The notes under the pieces are model-generated. The model saw only the letters and a list, made by a program, of their open reading frames with translations. It was not told the origin of the DNA and ran no database searches. From a virus (taxonomy: Duplodnaviria > Caudoviricetes), in IMG/VR virus record IMGVR_UViG_3300032280_000651, positions 1-64,000 of that record: a stretch of DNA of 64,000 nucleotides; one strand, given 5' to 3'. The position numbers were made by a program, and so were the translations under genes. Positions 5,349-19,945 of this stretch are shown in pieces (positions within the stretch are counted from its first letter, which is position 1; each line of letters opens with the position of its first letter).

Positions 5349-5380
5349 TTTGGTACAATAGAAAACTTTTTATACTTTTG
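5349..5380 (+). promoter_or_regulatory. Bacteroidota-type sigma promoter of tRNA operon 1
   Basis: TTTG (5349-5352), 20 nt, TACTTTTG (5373-5380); matches the -33/-7 consensus TTTG/TAnnTTTG. Confidence 0.75.
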
Positions 5381-5391
5381 TACTATAAAAA

Positions 5392-5423
5392 TAACAAAAT
5401 AACAAAATAACAAAATAACAAAA
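5392..5423 (+). repeat. Tandem 8-mer (TAACAAAA)x4
   Basis: Units start at 5392, 5400, 5408 and 5416. Confidence 0.9.
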
Positions 5424-5453
5424 AGGGAGAATAAACTTTTAATATATACAATA

Positions 5454-5555
5454 ATGAAAACAACTAATCTAAATATTAACTTAACGCTGAATGTCTTATG
5501 TCTAAGACAAAGACCGGGTTTTGCTATATTTAGAGCAAATGATTTTAGTTGGTAA
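5454..5555 (+). CDS. Attenuator leader peptide 1 (Leu/Arg), 33 aa
   Basis: MKTTNLNINLTLNVLCLRQRPGFAIFRANDFSW; 5 Leu (CTA, TTA, CTG, TTA, CTA) and 3 Arg (all AGA); lies between promoter and terminator. Confidence 0.8.
   Translation: MKTTNLNINLTLNVLCLRQRPGFAIFRANDFSW
5515..5523 (+). promoter_or_regulatory. Antiterminator strand of attenuator 1
   Basis: CGGGTTTTG is the exact reverse complement of CAAAACCCG (5584-5592), the 5' arm of the terminator. Confidence 0.7.
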
Positions 5556-5584
5556 TAACTGAAAGTATATCTAAATAATATAAC

Positions 5585-5617
5585 AAAACCCGAAATGTAA
5601 AAGTTTCGGGTTTTTTT
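5585..5617 (+). terminator. Intrinsic terminator of attenuator 1
   Basis: AAAACCCGAAA-tgtaaaag-TTTCGGGTTTT plus T-tract, 20 nt before the first tRNA. Confidence 0.85.
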
Positions 5618-5637
5618 ATGTAAAAAAATAAATAATT

Positions 5638-5709
5638 GGCCTCATCGTTCAACGGATAGGACTAAAGCCTTCTAAGCTTTCAATCGGGGTTCGAATCCCT
5701 GTGGGGTCA
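5638..5709 (+). tRNA. tRNA-Arg(UCU)
   Basis: Cloverleaf; anticodon arm aaagc-CTTCTAA-gcttt; GGTTCGAATCC T-arm. Confidence 0.9.
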
Positions 5710-5721
5710 CAAAATAAATAT

Positions 5722-5808
5722 GCGTCTGTGGTGAAATTGGTAGTACACGCAGGTCTTAAAAATCTGTGGTCAGGAATGACCGTGAGGGTTCGACTCCCTC
5801 CAGACGTA
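5722..5808 (+). tRNA. tRNA-Leu(UAA)
   Basis: caggt-CTTAAAA-atctg; long variable arm; GTTCGACTC. Confidence 0.9.
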
Positions 5809-5817
5809 CAAAAATAT

Positions 5818-5898
5818 GCCCCGTTAGTTCCGACTGTCTTCTAAACAGTTAAGGATAATTGGACGCTGAAAATGTAGGTTCGAGTCCTACACGGGGTA
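5818..5898 (+). ncRNA. D-arm-less tRNA-like RNA, anticodon UCU (Arg)
   Basis: 7-bp acceptor, 8-nt linker instead of a D arm, actgt-CTTCTAA-acagt, 24-nt extra region, canonical T arm. Confidence 0.75.
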
Positions 5899-5909
5899 CA
5901 AAATCACTT

Positions 5910-5994
5910 GTCGGAGTGGTGGAATGGTAGACACGCAGGTCTTAAACACCTGTGCTCCGGAAGGGGCGTGAGGGTTCGAGTCCCTCCTCCGATA
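5910..5994 (+). tRNA. tRNA-Leu(UAA), second copy
   Basis: caggt-CTTAAAC-acctg; long variable arm. Confidence 0.9.
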
Positions 5995-6002
5995 CAATAT
6001 AT

Positions 6003-6085
6003 GCCGAGGTGGTGGAATGGTAGACACGCTGGTCTAAGAAGCCAGTGTCCGAAAGGACGTGCGGGTTCGAGTCCCGCTCTCGGTA
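6003..6085 (+). tRNA. tRNA-Leu(AAG)
   Basis: ctggt-CTAAGAA-gccag; variable arm gtcc-gaaa-ggac. Confidence 0.9.
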
Positions 6086-6090
6086 CAAAA

Positions 6091-6173
6091 GCACCAGTGG
6101 TGGAACTGGTATACACGGTGGCCTCAAAAGCTACTATCTATATGATGTGTGGGTTCGACTCCCACCTGGTGTA
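6091..6173 (+). tRNA. tRNA-Leu(CAA)
   Basis: gtggc-CTCAAAA-gctac. Confidence 0.9.
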
Positions 6174-6180
6174 CAAAAAT

Positions 6181-6263
6181 GCGGGTATGGGGGAATGGTA
6201 GACCCGCCAGATTTAGGATCTGGTGTCCGAAAGGACGTGTCGGTTCGAGTCCGACTACCCGTA
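6181..6263 (+). tRNA. tRNA-Leu(UAG)
   Basis: ccaga-TTTAGGA-tctgg; long variable arm. Confidence 0.9.
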
Positions 6264-6277
6264 CAAAAATTAAAAAT

Positions 6278-6532: not shown

Positions 6533-6563
6533 TTTGTAGATTAAAAAACTTATAGTATATTTG
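6533..6563 (+). promoter_or_regulatory. Bacteroidota-type promoter of tRNA operon 2
   Basis: TTTG (6533-6536), 19 nt, TATATTTG (6556-6563). Confidence 0.7.
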
Positions 6564-6649
6564 TACTCTGTAATAATACAGAAAGTGTTTTACACTACTA
6601 TAATTAAAGAAAAACAAAAAGGGACAATAAAAATATAATATATAATACA

Positions 6650-6739
6650 ATGAAAACAAATACTATAAATATTAATGTGATTACGATTACGAATTGTGTG
6701 AATAGCACGACTTCGGGTAAGCGATTATGTATAGTATAA
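6650..6739 (+). CDS. Attenuator leader peptide 2 (Thr/Ile/Asn/Val/Cys), 29 aa
   Basis: MKTNTININVITITNCVNSTTSGKRLCIV; codons 3-18 are only T, N, I, V or C. Confidence 0.8.
   Translation: MKTNTININVITITNCVNSTTSGKRLCIV
6712..6718 (+). promoter_or_regulatory. Antiterminator strand of attenuator 2
   Basis: TTCGGGT is complementary to ACCCGAA (6768-6774) in the terminator 5' arm; can instead pair upstream in hairpin 6690-6715. Confidence 0.65.
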
Positions 6740-6763
6740 TGACATATATTATATACAATTTAT

Positions 6764-6800
6764 AAAGACCCGAACTCAAAAAGTTTGGGTCTTTTCTTTT
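6764..6800 (+). terminator. Intrinsic terminator of attenuator 2
   Basis: AAAGACCCGAAC-tcaaaaa-GTTTGGGTCTTT plus TCTTTT, 6 nt before the first tRNA. Confidence 0.85.
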
Positions 6801-6806
6801 ATATAT

Positions 6807-6878
6807 TCTCCTATGGTGAAATGGTTATCACGTCTGACTGTTAATCAGTTATTCCAGGTTCGAGTCCTGGTGGGAGAG
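6807..6878 (+). tRNA. tRNA-Asn(GUU)
   Basis: Loop CTGTTAA; G73. Confidence 0.9.
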
Positions 6879-6885
6879 CAAATAT

Positions 6886-6960
6886 TCCTCCGTAGCTATA
6901 ATGGTTTAGAGCGGCGTTTTGTTAAAGCGATGGTTACAGGTTCGAGTCCTGTCGGAGGAG
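6886..6960 (+). tRNA. tRNA-Asn(GUU), second copy
   Basis: Loop TTGTTAA; G73; 27:43 mismatch. Confidence 0.85.
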
Positions 6961-6969
6961 CAAATATAT

Positions 6970-7050
6970 TGGCACATACCAGCCCAACCTGATAAGTTGG
7001 AGAACTGTAAATGGTTGTTGAAAATGTGGGTTCAAATCCCTCTGTGCCAA
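6970..7050 (+). ncRNA. D-arm-less tRNA-like RNA, anticodon GAU (Ile)
   Basis: 7-bp acceptor, 7-nt linker, ccaac-CTGATAA-gttgg, 25-nt extra region ending TGAAAAT, T arm; same length and layout as 5818..5898. Confidence 0.75.
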
Positions 7051-7063
7051 CAAAAAAATATAT

Positions 7064-7149
7064 GGGACTGTGGTGTAGTTGGTTAAACATCCCACTCTTA
7101 CAAAGTGGAGACGAGAAGTATAACGTAGGTTCGAATCCTACCAGTCCTA
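7064..7149 (+). tRNA. tRNA-Val(UAC) with 16-nt variable region
   Basis: ccact-CTTACAA-agtgg. Confidence 0.85.
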
Positions 7150-7160
7150 CAAAAATACCT

Positions 7161-7235
7161 TGGTCGGTATATCAATTGGTTTAGATTATCACGCTGATAC
7201 CGTGAAGGTTGCGAGTTCGAGTCTCGCCCGACCAA
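7161..7235 (+). tRNA. tRNA-Ile(GAU)
   Basis: tcacg-CTGATAC-cgtga. Confidence 0.9.
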
Positions 7236-7301
7236 CAAAAAATTAAAGGTTCGAAACAGATGGAAGTGTCAATTTTTAATATATATAAATAAAAAACATA
7301 T

Positions 7302-8018
7302 ATGTTAAAAATAGAAAAATTACAATTAGAATTACTAATAGATAAAGGACTCTCTTTAAAAATTATTGCAGAAGAATTAAATATATCATATTCGACTATT
7401 AATAGACTATGTAATAAATATAATTTAAAGTCTAAATTTAATGAGTCAAAAAATGAACTAGTTAATTGTATTGAATGTGATATAGAATTTAATGGAAATA
7501 AAAAAGAAGAAAGAAAGTTTTGTAGTAGATCGTGTTCGGTTACTTATAATAATAGAATTAAAATTTTCACAGATGATACTAAACTAAAAATAAGTAATAC
7601 ATTAAAAAGTAGAAATAAAAAAGTAATTAAAATAAGACTATGTAAAAATTGTGATAATCTAGTTGGATATAAAAAAATAATATGTGATAGTTGTAGAGTA
7701 GATTATTATCAGTATTATAGACCAGCATCAAATTTCAATTTCGATATAAATCTCTACAAAGATAAGTTTGAACTTTCATTAGTTACTAAATATGGTTGGT
7801 ACAGCCCTTCAAATAAAGGTAATAACCTAAACGGTGTGAGTAAAGATCATTTATTTAGTGTTAAAGATGGTTTCGATAATAAAGTTAGTGTAGATCTAAT
7901 AAAACATCCGGCGAATTGTAAATTAATGATACATAAGGATAACCAAGTTAAAAATAGTAAAAGTGTAATAACACTAGAAGAATTGTTAAAAAGAATAGAA
8001 GAATGGAATAAGAAATAA
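7302..8018 (+). CDS. Putative HNH-like homing endonuclease inside tRNA array 2
   Basis: N-terminal HTH, CxxC zinc motifs, C-terminal SKDHLFS...HPANC...HKDNQVK His-Me finger. Confidence 0.65.
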   Translation: MLKIEKLQLELLIDKGLSLKIIAEELNISYSTINRLCNKYNLKSKFNESKNELVNCIECDIEFNGNKKEERKFCSRSCSVTYNNRIKIFTDDTKLKISNTLKSRNKKVIKIRLCKNCDNLVGYKKIICDSCRVDYYQYYRPASNFNFDINLYKDKFELSLVTKYGWYSPSNKGNNLNGVSKDHLFSVKDGFDNKVSVDLIKHPANCKLMIHKDNQVKNSKSVITLEELLKRIEEWNKK

Positions 8019-8020
8019 AT

Positions 8021-8108
8021 GGTATAGTGCCTGAGTGGTCGAAAGGTGCGGTCTGCAAAACCGTAATGATTAATTTCATCATCGTGGGTTCAAATCCTAC
8101 CTATACCT
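8021..8108 (+). tRNA. tRNA-Cys(GCA) with long variable arm
   Basis: gcggt-CTGCAAA-accgt; U73; variable stem atga/tcat. Confidence 0.85.
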
Positions 8109-8112
8109 CAAA

Positions 8113-8199
8113 TGTAGAGACAACAAGGATGATAGGAAAAAGTATTAACTAGTTCGAATCTAGGCCGGGTCTTAACGGACCTGGCATTACAACTCTACA
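8113..8199 (+). ncRNA. Rearranged tRNA-like RNA (terminal stem, T-arm, closed 8-bp hairpin)
   Basis: TGTAGAG/CTCTACA terminal stem; ctag-TTCGAAT-ctag followed directly by gccgggtc-ttaacg-gacctggc. Confidence 0.55.
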
Positions 8200-8203
8200 A
8201 ATT

Positions 8204-8276
8204 GCCGATATAGCTCAATAGGTAGAGTGCCAACTTGGTAGGTTGGAGGTTAAGGGTTCGATTCCCTTTATCGGAT
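8204..8276 (+). tRNA. tRNA-Thr(GGU)
   Basis: ccaac-TTGGTAG-gttgg; G1:A72 mismatch. Confidence 0.85.
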
Positions 8277-8284
8277 CAAATAAT

Positions 8285-8364
8285 GCTGGTGTCGCATAGT
8301 GGCCGATTGCACCTACCTTGTAAGTAGGAATTCCACACCGCAGGTTCGAATCCTGTCACTAGCT
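8285..8364 (+). tRNA. tRNA-Thr(UGU)
   Basis: cctac-CTTGTAA-gtagg; 11-nt variable loop. Confidence 0.85.
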
Positions 8365-8369
8365 CTGAA

Positions 8370-10443: not shown

Positions 10444-11310
10444 TTAAAAATCAGATTTATATTTCCATATAAATCCAGCGTGTGATTTTCTCTTACCGGT
10501 ACAAACATTTATAACATTACTCTTTTGAAATCCCGAATCAACTAAACCATTTAAGTTACTCCACTCTTTTACTATATTACCATCCGTATCAATTTGTAGA
10601 ATAATATCTTTTATCTTACCTTTATTATGCGGTTCTTTCCCAAGTCTTGCAATAGATTGCTTTTGTCTTGTTTCATCAGATACTATTTTACCTCTATTGG
10701 ATTCTGCTAATTTATCTTTATGTTCCTGTGATAAAGGAACACCTCTTAATTTAGCAGTTCTTTTTTCAATCCATTCTTCACTCTGCTTAATACCAGTTTT
10801 AATTTCAATCATTTTATCAATAGACGATTGTTTATGTTTTTTACCATACATGGGATGATTTTTACCTGATAGTATGATATTTTTATTCCAATAATCTTGT
10901 AATCTTAGATGATTTTTATTCTCAACTGCTTTTATACTCATTTTTTCTTTAACATCATCAGTATATACATAACCAGATACACCATCACCACCATCAGTCA
11001 TATTATATAATAAGCCACCTGATTTCTTTCTACCTAAATACTTTATTAATTTAATCTCTAAATCAATAGCTTCTTCTTCACTTTCAAACTCTTTTAATTT
11101 TACTATTAATGGTATATTTTCTTCTAAAATCATTTTATTTAACTTATTATAAAAATAATATTTATATCTTTTCCTATCATTAAGATGTGTAAACATTCTA
11201 TTGTTTTGACCCTTACCAATATAAATAGGTCTATGTGTAAAAATAATATCACCAAAAGATATATTTTCTTCCATTTTTGAATCTAAATAACCATATACAT
11301 AATATTTCAT
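10444..11310 (-). CDS. GIY-YIG-type homing endonuclease with NUMOD3/NUMOD1 motifs
   Basis: YYVY...IYIGKG..NR; HPMYGKKH; AGFIWKY C-terminus. Confidence 0.8.
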   Translation of the reverse strand: MKYYVYGYLDSKMEENISFGDIIFTHRPIYIGKGQNNRMFTHLNDRKRYKYYFYNKLNKMILEENIPLIVKLKEFESEEEAIDLEIKLIKYLGRKKSGGLLYNMTDGGDGVSGYVYTDDVKEKMSIKAVENKNHLRLQDYWNKNIILSGKNHPMYGKKHKQSSIDKMIEIKTGIKQSEEWIEKRTAKLRGVPLSQEHKDKLAESNRGKIVSDETRQKQSIARLGKEPHNKGKIKDIILQIDTDGNIVKEWSNLNGLVDSGFQKSNVINVCTGKRKSHAGFIWKYKSDF

Positions 11311-16241: not shown

Positions 16242-16775
16242 ATGATAAAAAAATTTGAAAACTTCAATAAGAAGAAAGTTATAGTATTTCACGGACTAGG
16301 TGGAGAACCTAATTCAGAAAGAACTAACATATTAAGAAACTTTGGATATGAAGTAGTTTATCCACACATTGATTTTGAAATGGAATGGTCTAAAGATAAA
16401 GGTAAATCCTTATTTGAAAGAACTTCAAGATTAGCAGAAGGATGTGATCTAATAATAGGTGTTAGTTTAGGTGGTTATCTAGCAAGTTTAATTGGTAATT
16501 ATTTAGGTATTGATTGTATCTTAATAAATCCCGCACTAGACAGAAACAAAACAAGATTAGATATAAAAAATCTAGATTGTCCACACCTATCTAATAAATG
16601 TAATATGGAAGTATTCATCGGAGATAAAGATACTTTAATACCAAAAGAATATACATTAGATTATATTAAAGATAATAATATTAATTGTAAAATTCATCAT
16701 ATCATTGGTATGGAACACAGATGCTCACTAAATAACTTTTTAGAGATTTTAAATCAAAGTAGTTTGGTAGTTTAG
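16242..16775 (+). CDS. Alpha/beta hydrolase (YqiA-like esterase)
   Basis: FHGLGG, GVSLGG nucleophile elbow, LINPAL, D...H. Confidence 0.8.
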   Translation: MIKKFENFNKKKVIVFHGLGGEPNSERTNILRNFGYEVVYPHIDFEMEWSKDKGKSLFERTSRLAEGCDLIIGVSLGGYLASLIGNYLGIDCILINPALDRNKTRLDIKNLDCPHLSNKCNMEVFIGDKDTLIPKEYTLDYIKDNNINCKIHHIIGMEHRCSLNNFLEILNQSSLVV

Positions 16776-16865
16776 AAAAAAGTAGTATCTTTGTAAAACA
16801 AATGAGATAAAACTCAAATAAAAATAAAAAAAGTTTGGTAAAATGAAAACTTTGTATTACTTTTG
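16763..16865 (+). promoter_or_regulatory. Two tandem Bacteroidota-type promoters of tRNA operon 3
   Basis: TTTG 16763 + 19 nt + TATCTTTG 16786; TTTG 16834 + 20 nt + TACTTTTG 16858. Confidence 0.7.
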
Positions 16866-16921
16866 TAGTATAAAATCAAAGAAAAACAAAAAGGAACAAT
16901 AAAAGTTTAATATATAGTAAT

Positions 16922-17020
16922 ATGAAAAATGTAAATGTAAATATCGTAGTTATGCCGCAGCCGATGCAGGATCAGGATCGTTTCACGAACCAGACTAACT
17001 ATGTATTTATATCACATTAA
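16922..17020 (+). CDS. Attenuator leader peptide 3 (Met/Pro/Gln/Asp), 32 aa
   Basis: MKNVNVNIVVMPQPMQDQDRFTNQTNYVFISH; codons 11-19 are only M, P, Q or D. Confidence 0.8.
   Translation: MKNVNVNIVVMPQPMQDQDRFTNQTNYVFISH
16992..16999 (+). promoter_or_regulatory. Antiterminator strand of attenuator 3
   Basis: AGACTAAC is complementary to GTTAGTCT (17050-17057) in the terminator 5' arm. Confidence 0.65.
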
Positions 17021-17043
17021 GAAATTACGTGTATAAAAATTAC

Positions 17044-17078
17044 AAATCCGTTAGTCTTTGAGACTAACGGATTTTTTT
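17044..17078 (+). terminator. Intrinsic terminator of attenuator 3
   Basis: AAATCCGTTAGTCT-ttg-AGACTAACGGATTT plus T-tract. Confidence 0.9.
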
Positions 17079-17097
17079 ATGGAATAAAATTAAATAT

Positions 17098-17169
17098 TGG
17101 AGTATCGTATAATGGTAATTATTCAGGGTGTTGGCCCCTGCGATTTGGGTTCGAATCCTAATACTCTAA
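17098..17169 (+). tRNA. tRNA-Gln(UUG) with G33
   Basis: caggg-TGTTGGC-ccctg. Confidence 0.75.
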
Positions 17170-17175
17170 CAAATA

Positions 17176-17261
17176 CTAGGCATTGGGCAGAGGCTATACC
17201 CACCTGATTTGGGATCAGGATTCTTAACAGATAATCGTCAGTTCGAATCTGACTGCTTAGA
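17176..17261 (+). tRNA. tRNA-Pro(UGG) with 17-nt variable region
   Basis: cctga-TTTGGGA-tcagg. Confidence 0.8.
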
Positions 17262-17268
17262 CAAAAAT

Positions 17269-17357
17269 AGTCGTGTGGTGGCAAAGGTTGCCGACCTGCC
17301 TGTCACGCAGGGTTGTCTTCGGACATTGATATGCCGGTTCGAGTCCGGTCACGACTG
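17269..17357 (+). tRNA. tRNA-Asp(GUC) with long variable arm
   Basis: cctgc-CTGTCAC-gcagg; G73; variable hairpin tgtc-TTCG-gaca. Confidence 0.8.
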
Positions 17358-17365
17358 CAATATAC

Positions 17366-17439
17366 TGGAGTATCGTATAATGGCATAATTACACTGCGTT
17401 TTGACCGCAGCAACATAGGTTCGATTCCTATTACTCCAA
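17366..17439 (+). tRNA. tRNA-Gln(UUG)
   Basis: ctgcg-TTTTGAC-cgcag. Confidence 0.85.
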
Positions 17440-17448
17440 CAAAAATAA

Positions 17449-17522
17449 CGCGTAACGATCCACAGAGAGAGGTTACCCGACTTGGTATCGGGGTTATTGT
17501 CAGTTCGAGTCTGACTTACGCG
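17449..17522 (+). tRNA. tRNA-Pro(UGG), divergent D arm and U37
   Basis: cccga-CTTGGTA-tcggg; gtcag-TTCGAGT-ctgac. Confidence 0.7.
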
Positions 17523-17528
17523 ACGAAA

Positions 17529-17601
17529 TAGTGCTGTAGCTCAGTGGAAGAGTGTCTGGTTGTCGCCCAGAAGGTCGCGGGTTCAATCCCCGTCAGTACT
17601 G
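17529..17601 (+). tRNA. tRNA-Asp(GUC)
   Basis: tctgg-TTGTCGC-ccaga; G73. Confidence 0.85.
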
Positions 17602-17663
17602 CAATTTCGATTCCGATAGGGACCGATAATTATTTAATATATATAATAAAATAATTATTTATT

Positions 17664-18473
17664 ATGTATGAAAAAGTTTGTAAGTGGTGTGGTAATTTAA
17701 TCTCTGTTGAAAAACAACAATCATTTGCATCACATGTCGCTGGATGTATTATGAATCCAAAAGTAGAAGAACGATATAAAAAGAATAGTGAGCGATTCAA
17801 GGGTGTTCTAAAGGTTGAACGAATCGAAATATCTAAAGAGTGTCCTAAATGTAAAGAAATTTTTAAAGTAATTGCAACTGAATCAGAAATTAGACGTAAT
17901 AAGGTCAGATTATTTTGTTCTAGAAAGTGTTCCAATACAAGAATACATTCAGAGAAAACTAAAGAAAAAATGTCATCGGCATCAATTGGTATTATTCCTT
18001 ATAATAAAGGAGTTAAAAAAATTAAAAAATTTACTTGTCTTAAATGTGGTAAAGAAGGTATTATAAAAAGATATAACAATAAACAGAAGTATCATTCAGA
18101 ATGTTGGAGATTATCATCTGGTGGTATAAGACAGGGAAGTAGTAGAGGTAAAAGTGGTTGGTATAAAGGTTACTGGTGTGATAGTAGTTATGAACTAGCA
18201 TATCTTATTTACAATTTAGATAATTCTATTTTGATTGAAAGAAATAAAAATGGTTTTGAATATACTCATAATGATGAAAAACATTTATTCTATCCTGATT
18301 TCATAATAGGAGGTAAATATATTGAGATAAAGAATTATAAATCGGAACTTACTGATAGTAAAATATCACAATTTCCATATGAAATAGAAATATATTATAA
18401 AGAAGAAATGAAACCATTCATAGAATATGTAAAAAATAAATATGGTAAGGATTTTATAAAATTATATGAATAA
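17664..18473 (+). CDS. Putative zinc-finger PD-(D/E)xK homing endonuclease inside tRNA array 3
   Basis: CxxC repeats; CDSSYELAY...YPDF...YIEIK. Confidence 0.65.
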   Translation: MYEKVCKWCGNLISVEKQQSFASHVAGCIMNPKVEERYKKNSERFKGVLKVERIEISKECPKCKEIFKVIATESEIRRNKVRLFCSRKCSNTRIHSEKTKEKMSSASIGIIPYNKGVKKIKKFTCLKCGKEGIIKRYNNKQKYHSECWRLSSGGIRQGSSRGKSGWYKGYWCDSSYELAYLIYNLDNSILIERNKNGFEYTHNDEKHLFYPDFIIGGKYIEIKNYKSELTDSKISQFPYEIEIYYKEEMKPFIEYVKNKYGKDFIKLYE

Positions 18474-18474
18474 T

Positions 18475-18544
18475 ACCGAGTGATCTTGGGGATCAGAGAC
18501 GGTTCATATCTGACTCTAGAAGGGTTCGATCCCCTTGCTCGGTA
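18475..18544 (+). tRNA. tRNA with CAU anticodon (Met)
   Basis: Loop TTCATAT; short D arm gatc/gatc; mismatch in anticodon stem. Confidence 0.7.
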
Positions 18545-18550
18545 CAAATT

Positions 18551-18683
18551 GGTAGTGTTAGCACTAAAGTCAGAGATTTAATCGGATGACGGGATTATAT
18601 GATAATGTGAGTTATGTAATTCTAGGAATGGGTGCACCTTGAGGAGGAAATCACATTTGCTGGTTCGAGTCCAGCCACTACCG
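18551..18683 (+). ncRNA. 133-nt tRNA-like RNA with expanded interior
   Basis: ggtagtg/cactacc acceptor plus gctgg-TTCGAGT-ccagc T arm; interior stems gtca/tgac and aatgtga/tcacatt; no 7-nt anticodon loop. Confidence 0.6.
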
Positions 18684-18689
18684 CAAAAT

Positions 18690-18761
18690 GGCGTTGTATC
18701 TCAGAGGCAGAGAAGTCGGCTCATATCCGAACGGTCGGGATCTCGGAATTCCCCAACGCTA
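18690..18761 (+). tRNA. tRNA with CAU anticodon (Met), atypical T loop
   Basis: tcgg-CTCATAT-ccga; T loop CTCGGAA. Confidence 0.7.
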
Positions 18762-19693: not shown

Positions 19694-19945
19694 ATGAAAA
19701 AACTAATAGTAAAATCCGCAACTCAACTTTGGACAGTTCTTAAAAACAAAGAAGAAATCTTTGAGAATAATAAAGAGCTAGCAAGATTTATATTTGTCAC
19801 AGAAAAATTCATAAAAGGATGTCAATGTGGTTCAGATAATAAAACTTTAATGGATAATCAATACAACTATATTTCTACAAACGAAGAAATTATAACTATT
19901 CTAAAAAATGAATTAGGTTATGAAGAAATTATCTTTGAAAAATAA
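19694..19945 (+). CDS. Hypothetical protein
   Basis: 83 aa ORF. Confidence 0.55.
   Translation: MKKLIVKSATQLWTVLKNKEEIFENNKELARFIFVTEKFIKGCQCGSDNKTLMDNQYNYISTNEEIITILKNELGYEEIIFEK

Follow-up and report, generated by a model that had tools for sequence, protein, structure and literature searches.

A probable leader-peptide attenuator ahead of a Gln, Pro and Asp tRNA array in a phage genome

Leader-peptide attenuators are known from the amino-acid operons of enterobacteria, such as trpL, hisL, pheL and leuL, together with the multivalent forms, of which the ilvGMEDA leader senses Ile, Val and Leu, and the thr leader senses Thr and Ile; in Escherichia coli, the pheM leader attenuates the pheST operon for phenylalanyl-tRNA synthetase. 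T-boxes, found mostly in Firmicutes, have no open reading frame (ORF), bind uncharged tRNA directly, and regulate genes for synthetases, biosynthesis and transporters. To our knowledge, all the leader-peptide attenuators so far described regulate amino-acid biosynthesis or aminoacyl-tRNA synthetase genes. The tRNA genes of phages are usually discussed as constitutive helpers in codon usage or as spares against the cleavage of host tRNAs, and as far as we know the control of their expression is essentially unknown. The locus considered here, called unit 3, lies in a stretch of 64,000 nucleotides (the window) that comprises positions 1 to 64,000 of the virus record IMGVR_UViG_3300032280_000651, and consists of a short leader ORF and an intrinsic terminator that precede a tRNA array, between 16922 and 18761.

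A preliminary description of unit 3 had proposed that it is a leader-peptide attenuator gating the tRNA array, and this proposal is supported by the anatomy of the locus, by the lack of an intervening host-type promoter, by the co-variation of the leader classes with their tRNAs, and by the geometry and the predicted folds. It is probable, in our estimation, that unit 3 is a ribosome-mediated transcription attenuator, in which the slow decoding of control codons would cause read-through into the tRNA operon and thereby exert a negative feedback on the supply of tRNA.

The leader and the tRNA genes that follow it

The window is AT-rich phage DNA belonging to a parent contig of 79,181 bases with a G+C content of 28.8%. 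As in the known leader-peptide attenuators, a short ORF runs from start to stop inside the putative transcribed leader, 5′ of the genes it would regulate (Table 1), and contains a cluster of regulatory codons tied to the regulated product. The nine codons that had been reported, ATG CCG CAG CCG ATG CAG GAT CAG GAT, are indeed read there, in frame with the leader ATG. Because Met, Pro, Gln and Asp account for only 15.3% of the residues in the ORFs of the contig, nine successive residues of these four kinds have a probability of about 5e-8 at the amino-acid usage of the phage, and no other Met/Pro/Gln/Asp run of seven residues or more occurs in any of the six frames of the 79-kb contig.

An intrinsic terminator stands between the leader ORF and the first tRNA gene. 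The host is presumed to belong to the Bacteroidota, and a scan of the window with the Bacteroidota promoter consensus (TTTG, 18-21 nt, TAnnTTTG) found no host-type match between the terminator and the tRNAs, the next match 3′ of the leader being at 19934; thus the array, with no host-type promoter of its own, would be reachable only by read-through of the terminator. In the window, this motif appears 14 times against an expected 3.3 (none of 100 shuffles reached 14), with 13 of the 14 matches on the + strand, and the sigma-70 consensus is uninformative, with 15 sites against 15.5 expected. A matching layout of promoter motif, 5′ untranslated region (UTR) with TTAATATATA, leader ORF and terminator is also present ahead of two further tRNA arrays in the window (5349-6264 and 6533-8365).

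The conserved 5′ UTR motif was the query by which related units were drawn from IMG/VR and from metagenomes. A strong hairpin with a U-tract and then a tRNA were required, the ORF ending just 5′ of these was taken as the leader, and 53 distinct leaders in 19 classes were obtained in this way; a looser metagenome pattern drew many unrelated AT-rich contigs, and only the loci that passed the filter for terminator and tRNA were kept. The composition of the leader changes from class to class with the array that follows. Leaders rich in Leu and Arg precede tRNAs for Arg(UCU) and Leu; those rich in Asn, Ile, Val, Thr and Cys precede arrays of the identical five specificities; those rich in Phe, Lys, His, Trp and Ser precede Lys, Trp, Phe and His; those rich in Ser and Arg precede Arg(ACG) and Ser; those rich in Tyr and Glu precede Tyr and Glu; those rich in Ile, Glu, Ala, Gly and Tyr precede Tyr, Glu, Ile(UAU), Gly and Ala; and those rich in Ala and Gly precede Ala and Gly.

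In quantitative terms, for 40.5% of the leader residues a cognate tRNA is encoded in the operon behind the leader, against 19.3% when the tRNA sets are permuted among classes (maximum of 32.1% in 1e5 permutations; p<=1e-5), and for 95.8% of the tRNA specificities the leader of the operon contains the corresponding amino acid, against 65.9% after permutation. In the best window of 12 leader residues the match rises to 0.69, against 0.31 permuted. The match is restricted to the frame of the ORF (0.405, against 0.145-0.231 in the five other frames) and descends to the level of the codon, as 203 of the 221 matched leader codons are readable by the encoded anticodon and the choice of codon tracks the isoacceptor, with ATA accompanying Ile(UAU), ATT accompanying Ile(GAU), AGA accompanying Arg(UCU) and CGC accompanying Arg(ACG). 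At the level of RNA, the complementarity of the 3′ half of the leader to the 5′ arm of the terminator exceeds that of dinucleotide shuffles (mean z of -2.18; p<0.05 in 58% of the units). The co-variation of leaders and tRNAs, class by class, argues more strongly than any other observation for the attenuator, and we take it to be decisive as far as sequences can decide.

A search of GenBank phages by BLAST gave short matches only, one of which is the leader region of LR745206.1, a complete uncultured phage of 634,780 bp that has 61 tRNA hits overall and seven such units 5′ of its main tRNA arrays. There, the homologous leader is rich in Pro and Asp, keeps Gln codons and is followed by an array of Pro and Asp tRNAs, and a second leader, rich in Gln and with a terminator of its own, is followed by three tRNA-Gln genes. 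In other words, this closest divergent relative appears from its sequence to split the task of unit 3 over two leaders.

Within the unit-3 family itself, the leader ORF recurs, identical or nearly so, in 11 distinct sequence variants, in all of which the last four codons of the control run, CAG GAT CAG GAT, are invariant; the first five vary, in part synonymously (CAG to CAA, CCG to CCA or CCT). In two relatives (L018, 1489-1660, and L122) the deletion of 1 nt directly 3′ of the control run reframes and lengthens the ORF, so that the C-terminal peptide is wholly altered and the nucleotides of segment 2 remain intact, and in a third (L082) three transitions in segment 2 alter two residues and keep the 1:2 pairing, through exchanges of G-U for G-C and of A-U for G-U. 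The control run would thus have been conserved as codons and the 3′ part of the leader as RNA. In the terminators of the relatives, the core of the 5′ arm, GUUAGUC, is invariant, its partner in the 3′ arm is GACUAAC or GAUUAAC, and the base of the stem carries compensatory replacements, which is what would be expected if the 5′ arm had two partners, since it would also have to pair with the leader. One further variant (L058:812-974) has ATA (Ile) in place of both Met codons in its control run, TCA in place of the first Pro codon and CTG in place of one Gln codon.

These comparisons bear on an explanation that we regard as improbable, namely that the terminator is a constitutive and leaky insulator, or marks where an upstream transcript ends, that the small ORF encodes an unrelated micro-protein or is non-functional, and that the tRNAs are made by unregulated read-through. 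The annotation of the Caulobacter phage phiCbK, where intrinsic terminators before tRNA blocks pass without comment, would agree with such an arrangement, and so would the presence of G-rich codons outside the control residues too, by which the composition of the leader may be partly structural. However, this explanation gives no account of a leader composition that follows the tRNA set by class, in frame and at the level of the codon, nor of a leader segment complementary to the 5′ arm of the terminator, nor of the toleration of a frameshift in the C-terminal part while the control run stays in frame, and it would sit poorly with a promoter placed 5′ of the ORF and not of the tRNAs.

The predicted switch and its alternatives

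The minimum-energy fold of 16900-17085 (z = -5.2 against shuffles) consists of a helix, 16928-16952:16996-17018, that encloses the control run, together with the terminator. The 8-bp antiterminator 16992-16999:17050-17057 of the preliminary description is fully complementary, and its first strand begins exactly 13 nt past the control run. Its geometry, by which a stalled ribosome would leave the antiterminator free, was likewise borne out by the folding of stalled states, in which only the RNA from 14 nt past the A site to the base 5′ of the terminator 3′ arm was folded, for A sites on each of the eight control codons from the first Pro to the final Asp: at 8/8 of these, the predicted fold pairs AGACUAAC with GUUAGUCU in the 2:3 helix, stacked on the inner hairpin 17002-17044, so that, as in the known attenuators, the antiterminator would be made from the 5′ arm of the terminator and a leader segment freed by the stall. 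The predicted energies are -23.8 kcal/mol for the ORF region with the 1:2 helix, -17.9 kcal/mol for the terminator and -13.1 kcal/mol for the antiterminator. Taken as models, the folds give three mutually exclusive states, 1:2, 2:3 and 3:4, which would correspond to the classical layout of an attenuator, and their energies would fit the classical hierarchy.

When nine unit-3 variants are compared, the proportion of pairable cells is 85.7% in the 1:2 helix (24-44% in its slid controls), 88.3% in the antiterminator and 89.7% in the terminator, against 17-59% in the slid controls as a whole, and the 2:3 helix alone is pairable at 95.8%. In the full-length thermodynamic folds of the nascent RNA, another long-range pairing is used, between UCAAAGA in the 5′ UTR (16876-16882) and UCUUUGA at 17055-17061, where the last part of the terminator 5′ arm passes into the loop; in an RNA so rich in A and U, this complementarity may be due to chance.

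The following cycle could be drawn from these elements. The RNA polymerase of the host would start at the Bacteroidota-type promoter 16834-16865 and transcribe the 32-codon leader. When the Met, Pro, Gln and Asp codons were decoded quickly, the ribosome would reach the stop codon and depart, 16928-16952 would pair with 16996-17018, and this 1:2 pairing would allow the terminator (17044-17074) to form, with transcription stopping 5′ of the tRNA genes. When any of the control codons was slow, the ribosome would be held in 16952-16978 and segment 1 kept off segment 2, AGACUAAC (16992-16999) would pair with GUUAGUCU (17050-17057) above the inner hairpin, and the terminator would be blocked; the polymerase would then read through to the Gln, Pro and Asp tRNAs, present in two copies each, and further on to the CAU tRNAs. 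The new tRNAs would quicken the decoding of the leader, and the operon would be turned off again, closing a loop of negative feedback. The candidates for the trigger are a mismatch of codon usage with the host, host shut-off, and the destruction of host tRNAs by defence nucleases. What is observed is the set of elements and their order, the predicted folds, and the co-variation of leaders with tRNA sets; that the leader is translated, that the ribosome stalls, that termination is conditional and that the switch works in this direction is what we infer.

It is this direction that the next explanation reverses, and we consider it less probable still than a leaky terminator. According to it, efficient leader translation under an ample supply of cognate tRNAs would melt the 1:2 helix and bring about read-through, and a stall or the absence of translation would bring about termination, in a feed-forward circuit. 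A ribosome at the stop codon would leave 16992-16999 just behind its footprint and nominally unpaired, and the thermodynamic folds retain the 1:2 helix at late stalls when pairing across the ribosome is permitted, both of which would suit such a circuit. Nevertheless, with the ribosome at the stop codon the 2:3 helix would have to enclose the ribosome, and after its release the 1:2 helix, by far the more stable (-23.8 against -13.1 kcal/mol), should win and permit termination; moreover, there is no evident gain in making tRNA that is already plentiful, and the layout is that of the classical attenuators, in which a stall leads to read-through.

Against the attenuator with stall-dependent read-through, several points have to be weighed: (i) starvation for an amino acid would likewise stall the ribosome, and extra tRNA would be no cure for it; (ii) the coupling of transcription and translation in the presumed Bacteroidota host is assumed; (iii) if the footprint alone is masked and pairs are free to span the ribosome, the 1:2 helix persists for late stalls in the thermodynamic fold, and thus the switch would presuppose steric and kinetic exclusion, as every attenuator model does; (iv) the 2:3 helix has only 8 bp, of which 6/8 pairs are invariant with no double compensatory change in the nine variants, and among these close kin the covariation of the 1:2 helix is not above shuffles, the covariation statistics being weak, and true double compensatory changes few, because the nine are closely related, for which reason the evidence across classes was relied on instead; (v) the Ser/Arg and the Gln-only classes of leader have no significant simple duplex between leader and terminator; (vi) and finally, the CAU tRNAs are weak calls, preceded by an 810-nt ORF with an upstream motif of its own.

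A direct sensing of tRNAs by the leader RNA in the manner of a T-box, with codon-like triplets pairing with anticodons in the absence of translation, is very improbable, in spite of the match between codons and tRNAs and of an output by choice between terminator and antiterminator as in T-boxes, since neither a T-box (RF00230) nor any other Rfam family reaches threshold in the window or in 16750-17110 (for RF00230, the gathering score in the former and E<=5 in the latter), the triplets share a single frame bounded by a conserved ATG and a stop and lose their match in the other frames, nine adjacent specifiers for four tRNAs would be without precedent, and no conserved bulge like that of T-boxes is evident. 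The Rfam His, Trp, Thr, Leu and Phe leader families and the riboswitches gave no fit in these same two regions. Sub-threshold Rfam matches to tsr31, L10_leader and RybB were rejected as chance matches driven by the terminator hairpin.

The control codons for Pro and Gln had also been said to be all G-ending, opposite the encoded UGG and UUG anticodons, which is correct (two CCG and three CAG); as CCG makes up 6% of the Pro codons and CAG 12% of the Gln codons in this phage, such a set has a probability of about 5.6e-6. Among the class representatives, the G-ending share of the codons ending in A or G is 42% at matching positions, against 13.7% in the phage ORFs (p = 2e-12), and 31% at the non-matching positions of the leaders. 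The bias in this leader is real. As a conserved and specific design, however, it was not upheld, given that the relatives use the A- or T-ending synonyms CAA, CCA and CCT at positions of the control run and that the non-matching leader codons are also enriched in G, and it could equally be a consequence of AT-rich DNA having to encode stable RNA helices. It is possible, with no specific support, that the leaders report on host C34 isoacceptors or on the modification of U34 through their G-ending codons. A wider proposal, to be taken as speculative and on balance doubtful, is that the leaders go beyond a general sensing of shortage and are tuned to the codons most weakly decoded by the phage U34 tRNAs through U:G wobble (CCG, CAG, ACG, GTG, etc.), so that read-through would report on U34 modification or on the depletion of host tRNAs by anticodon nucleases or by host shut-off, and that together they would form a codon-resolved circuit of counter-defence and supply, evolving by the duplication and retuning of one ancestral attenuator.

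The tRNA array, the inserted ORF and the upstream motifs

The coordinates of the locus are collected in Table 1. The order claimed for the genes was Gln, Pro, Asp, Gln, Pro, Asp, Met, Met, of which the six Gln, Pro and Asp genes are firm and the two CAU genes are confirmed as weaker calls. The six firm genes form an array on the + strand (17098-17602) with spacers of 5-8 nt, beginning 17-24 nt past the U-tract of the terminator. In the relative L082, the orthologue of the first CAU tRNA directly follows the Gln, Pro and Asp genes with no ORF between; thus, the Met codons of the leader would have a cognate gene, and the ORF at 17664-18473 would be a later insertion.

Table 1. Elements of unit 3 and of the tRNA array in the window
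Feature	Position	Strand	Basis or remark
Distal Bacteroidota-type promoter match (TTTG, 19-nt spacer, TAnnTTTG)	16763-16793	+	Pattern scan; putative function
Proximal Bacteroidota-type promoter match	16834-16865	+	Pattern scan, putative function; position shared by units 1 and 2 and by relatives
Conserved 5′ UTR motif ending in TTAATATATA	16888-16916	+	Ends 5 nt 5′ of the leader ATG
Leader ORF	16922-17020	+	32 codons and TAA stop; ATG at 16922, TAA at 17018-17020
Segment 1, 5′ strand of the anti-antiterminator (1:2) helix	16928-16952	+	Pairs with 16996-17018; minimum-energy folds
Control run Met-Pro-Gln-Pro-Met-Gln-Asp-Gln-Asp	16952-16978	+	Leader codons 11-19
Segment 2	16992-17020	+	16992-16999 (AGACUAAC), antiterminator strand; 16996-17018, partner of segment 1
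Inner hairpin of the antiterminator fold, stacked below the 2:3 helix	17002-17044	+	Folding; three pairs changed on both sides
Intrinsic terminator, 14-bp stem and U-tract	17044-17081	+	Folding and relatives
Terminator 5′ arm (segment 3)	17044-17057	+	
GUUAGUCU	17050-17057	+	Within the terminator 5′ arm; perfect complement of AGACUAAC
Terminator loop	17058-17060	+	
Terminator 3′ arm (segment 4)	17061-17074	+	Followed by the U-tract
tRNA-Gln(UUG)	17098-17170	+	ARAGORN and Rfam
tRNA-Pro(UGG)	17176-17262	+	ARAGORN and Rfam
tRNA-Asp(GUC)	17269-17358	+	ARAGORN and Rfam
tRNA-Gln(UUG), second	17366-17440	+	ARAGORN and Rfam
tRNA-Pro(UGG), second	17449-17524	+	ARAGORN and Rfam
tRNA-Asp(GUC), second	17530-17602	+	ARAGORN and Rfam
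269-aa ORF inserted in the array	17664-18473	+	Own TTAATATATA motif upstream at 17634
CAU-anticodon tRNA (Met-like), weak call	18474-18545	+	tRNA-Met(CAU) by ARAGORN at relaxed threshold only
tRNA-like gene, uncertain identity	18551-18684	+	Perfect 7-bp acceptor stem and T arm; insert of ~50 nt
CAU-anticodon tRNA (Met-like)	18690-18761	+	Rfam tRNA 38.9 bits, cut-off 29; anticodon CAU

The inserted ORF is probably, to judge from its sequence, a homing endonuclease; its match to NUMOD3 (18.9 bits) lies below the Pfam cut-off of 20.4, and in the BLAST search of GenBank phages the similarity to Lak phages is confined to a part of this endonuclease-like ORF. A second ORF inside a tRNA array, also with its own TTAATATATA, is found at 7303-8019. 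Between the two CAU genes, the tRNA-like gene of 18551-18684 is called by ARAGORN at the relaxed threshold only, as an intron-containing tRNA of doubtful identity; intron-containing tRNAs have been reported in Lak phages (PMC6784885). With code 11, the coding density of the whole contig is 86% and TAG is a stop 8 times, and a recoding of TAG as in the Lak phages was rejected, the contig giving no sign of it.

Several tRNAs of the window are unusually long. The variable loop of tRNAs for Pro, Asp, Val, Cys and Thr is normally short, and five genes of these specificities (17176-17262, 17269-17358, 7064-7150, 8021-8109 and 8285-8365) measure 81-90 nt, with an insert after the anticodon arm; the second copies of Pro (76 nt) and Asp (73 nt), in the same array as the long Pro and Asp genes, are of normal size, and the long copies have lower Rfam scores (38-40 bits against 58-64). 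Inside the Asn/Val/Ile array, a tRNA at 6970-7050 that looks atypical was found with Rfam (34.5 bits) and missed by ARAGORN.

As for the motif TTAATATATA, it is present on the + strand of the window at 5439, 7276, 8472, 14934, 16907, 17634 and 18783, and on the - strand at 10447, 13591, 29553, 51184, 53385, 56317, 57865 and 59419. Its end falls about 5-12 nt 5′ of the ATG in many ORFs, on either strand, among them the three leaders and those endonuclease-like ORFs that interrupt tRNA arrays, and it may be a phage-specific promoter for near-leaderless mRNAs or an element of translation start.

Comparison with described systems

We found no account of an attenuator or a leader peptide ahead of tRNA genes, either in full-text searches of a literature whose incomplete coverage does not guarantee priority or in papers on huge phages or Lak phages (PMC6784885, PMC8346664 and PMC7162821). 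If the attenuator is real, a phage would be gauging the decoding speed of exactly those codons that a block of tRNAs serves and would be making the block on demand, and a textbook mechanism would be extended to targets in which the regulated product is the very molecule that is sensed. It would also supply a simple sequence rule for recognizing regulated tRNA operons (promoter, mini-ORF, terminator, tRNAs), predicting which tRNAs share a transcription unit, as well as compact and programmable multi-codon sensors for synthetic biology, and the 19 paralogous classes of leader would constitute a natural series of retuned switches in which to follow the evolution of attenuators.

A similar arrangement may be recognized in the phage phiCbK (NC_019405, 49540-49769), where an annotated hypothetical protein of 45 codons and an annotated rho-independent terminator are followed by tRNA-Pro x2, Lys x2, Leu x3 and Ser x2, and where further annotated terminators precede a Glu/Asp block and a Phe/Val/Ile/Gln block. 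As in unit 3, a mini-ORF and a terminator directly precede the tRNAs, and Ser, Leu, Pro and Lys, which the block serves, are frequent in the ORF; Ala and Thr, for which the block has no tRNAs, are likewise frequent in it, and phiCbK belongs to an unrelated lineage with a host of another phylum and shows no sequence similarity.

Among the cellular systems, the T-box (RF00230) resembles unit 3 in that the status of tRNA is read and a terminator or an antiterminator is chosen. The pheM leader is closer, as a leader-peptide attenuator that acts on a component of translation and answers to the decoding of cognate codons, as is predicted here, but pheM is cellular and controls a synthetase gene through one amino acid, whereas unit 3 would control tRNA genes through four specificities. 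With the ilvGMEDA and thr leaders, unit 3 has in common the promoter, the short ORF with its regulatory codons, mutually exclusive helices as predicted (2:3 and 3:4 and, less certainly, 1:2), the terminator just before the genes, the proposed sensing of several amino acids by one leader, and the predicted passage from a stall to the antiterminator. It differs from them in that its targets are tRNA genes, and not genes for biosynthetic enzymes or for synthetases, so that the product would be the sensed molecule itself; in that it is carried by a phage, with a presumed Bacteroidota host and with paralogous units each retuned to its own array; and in that it has no sequence similarity to any leader family of Rfam. 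Thus, on the evidence of sequence and folding models, unit 3 would represent a known mechanism of attenuation applied to a new class of target, the tRNA genes, and it agrees with that mechanism in each structural feature that gave a clear result, from the leader ORF and the control codons to the terminator and the predicted antiterminator.

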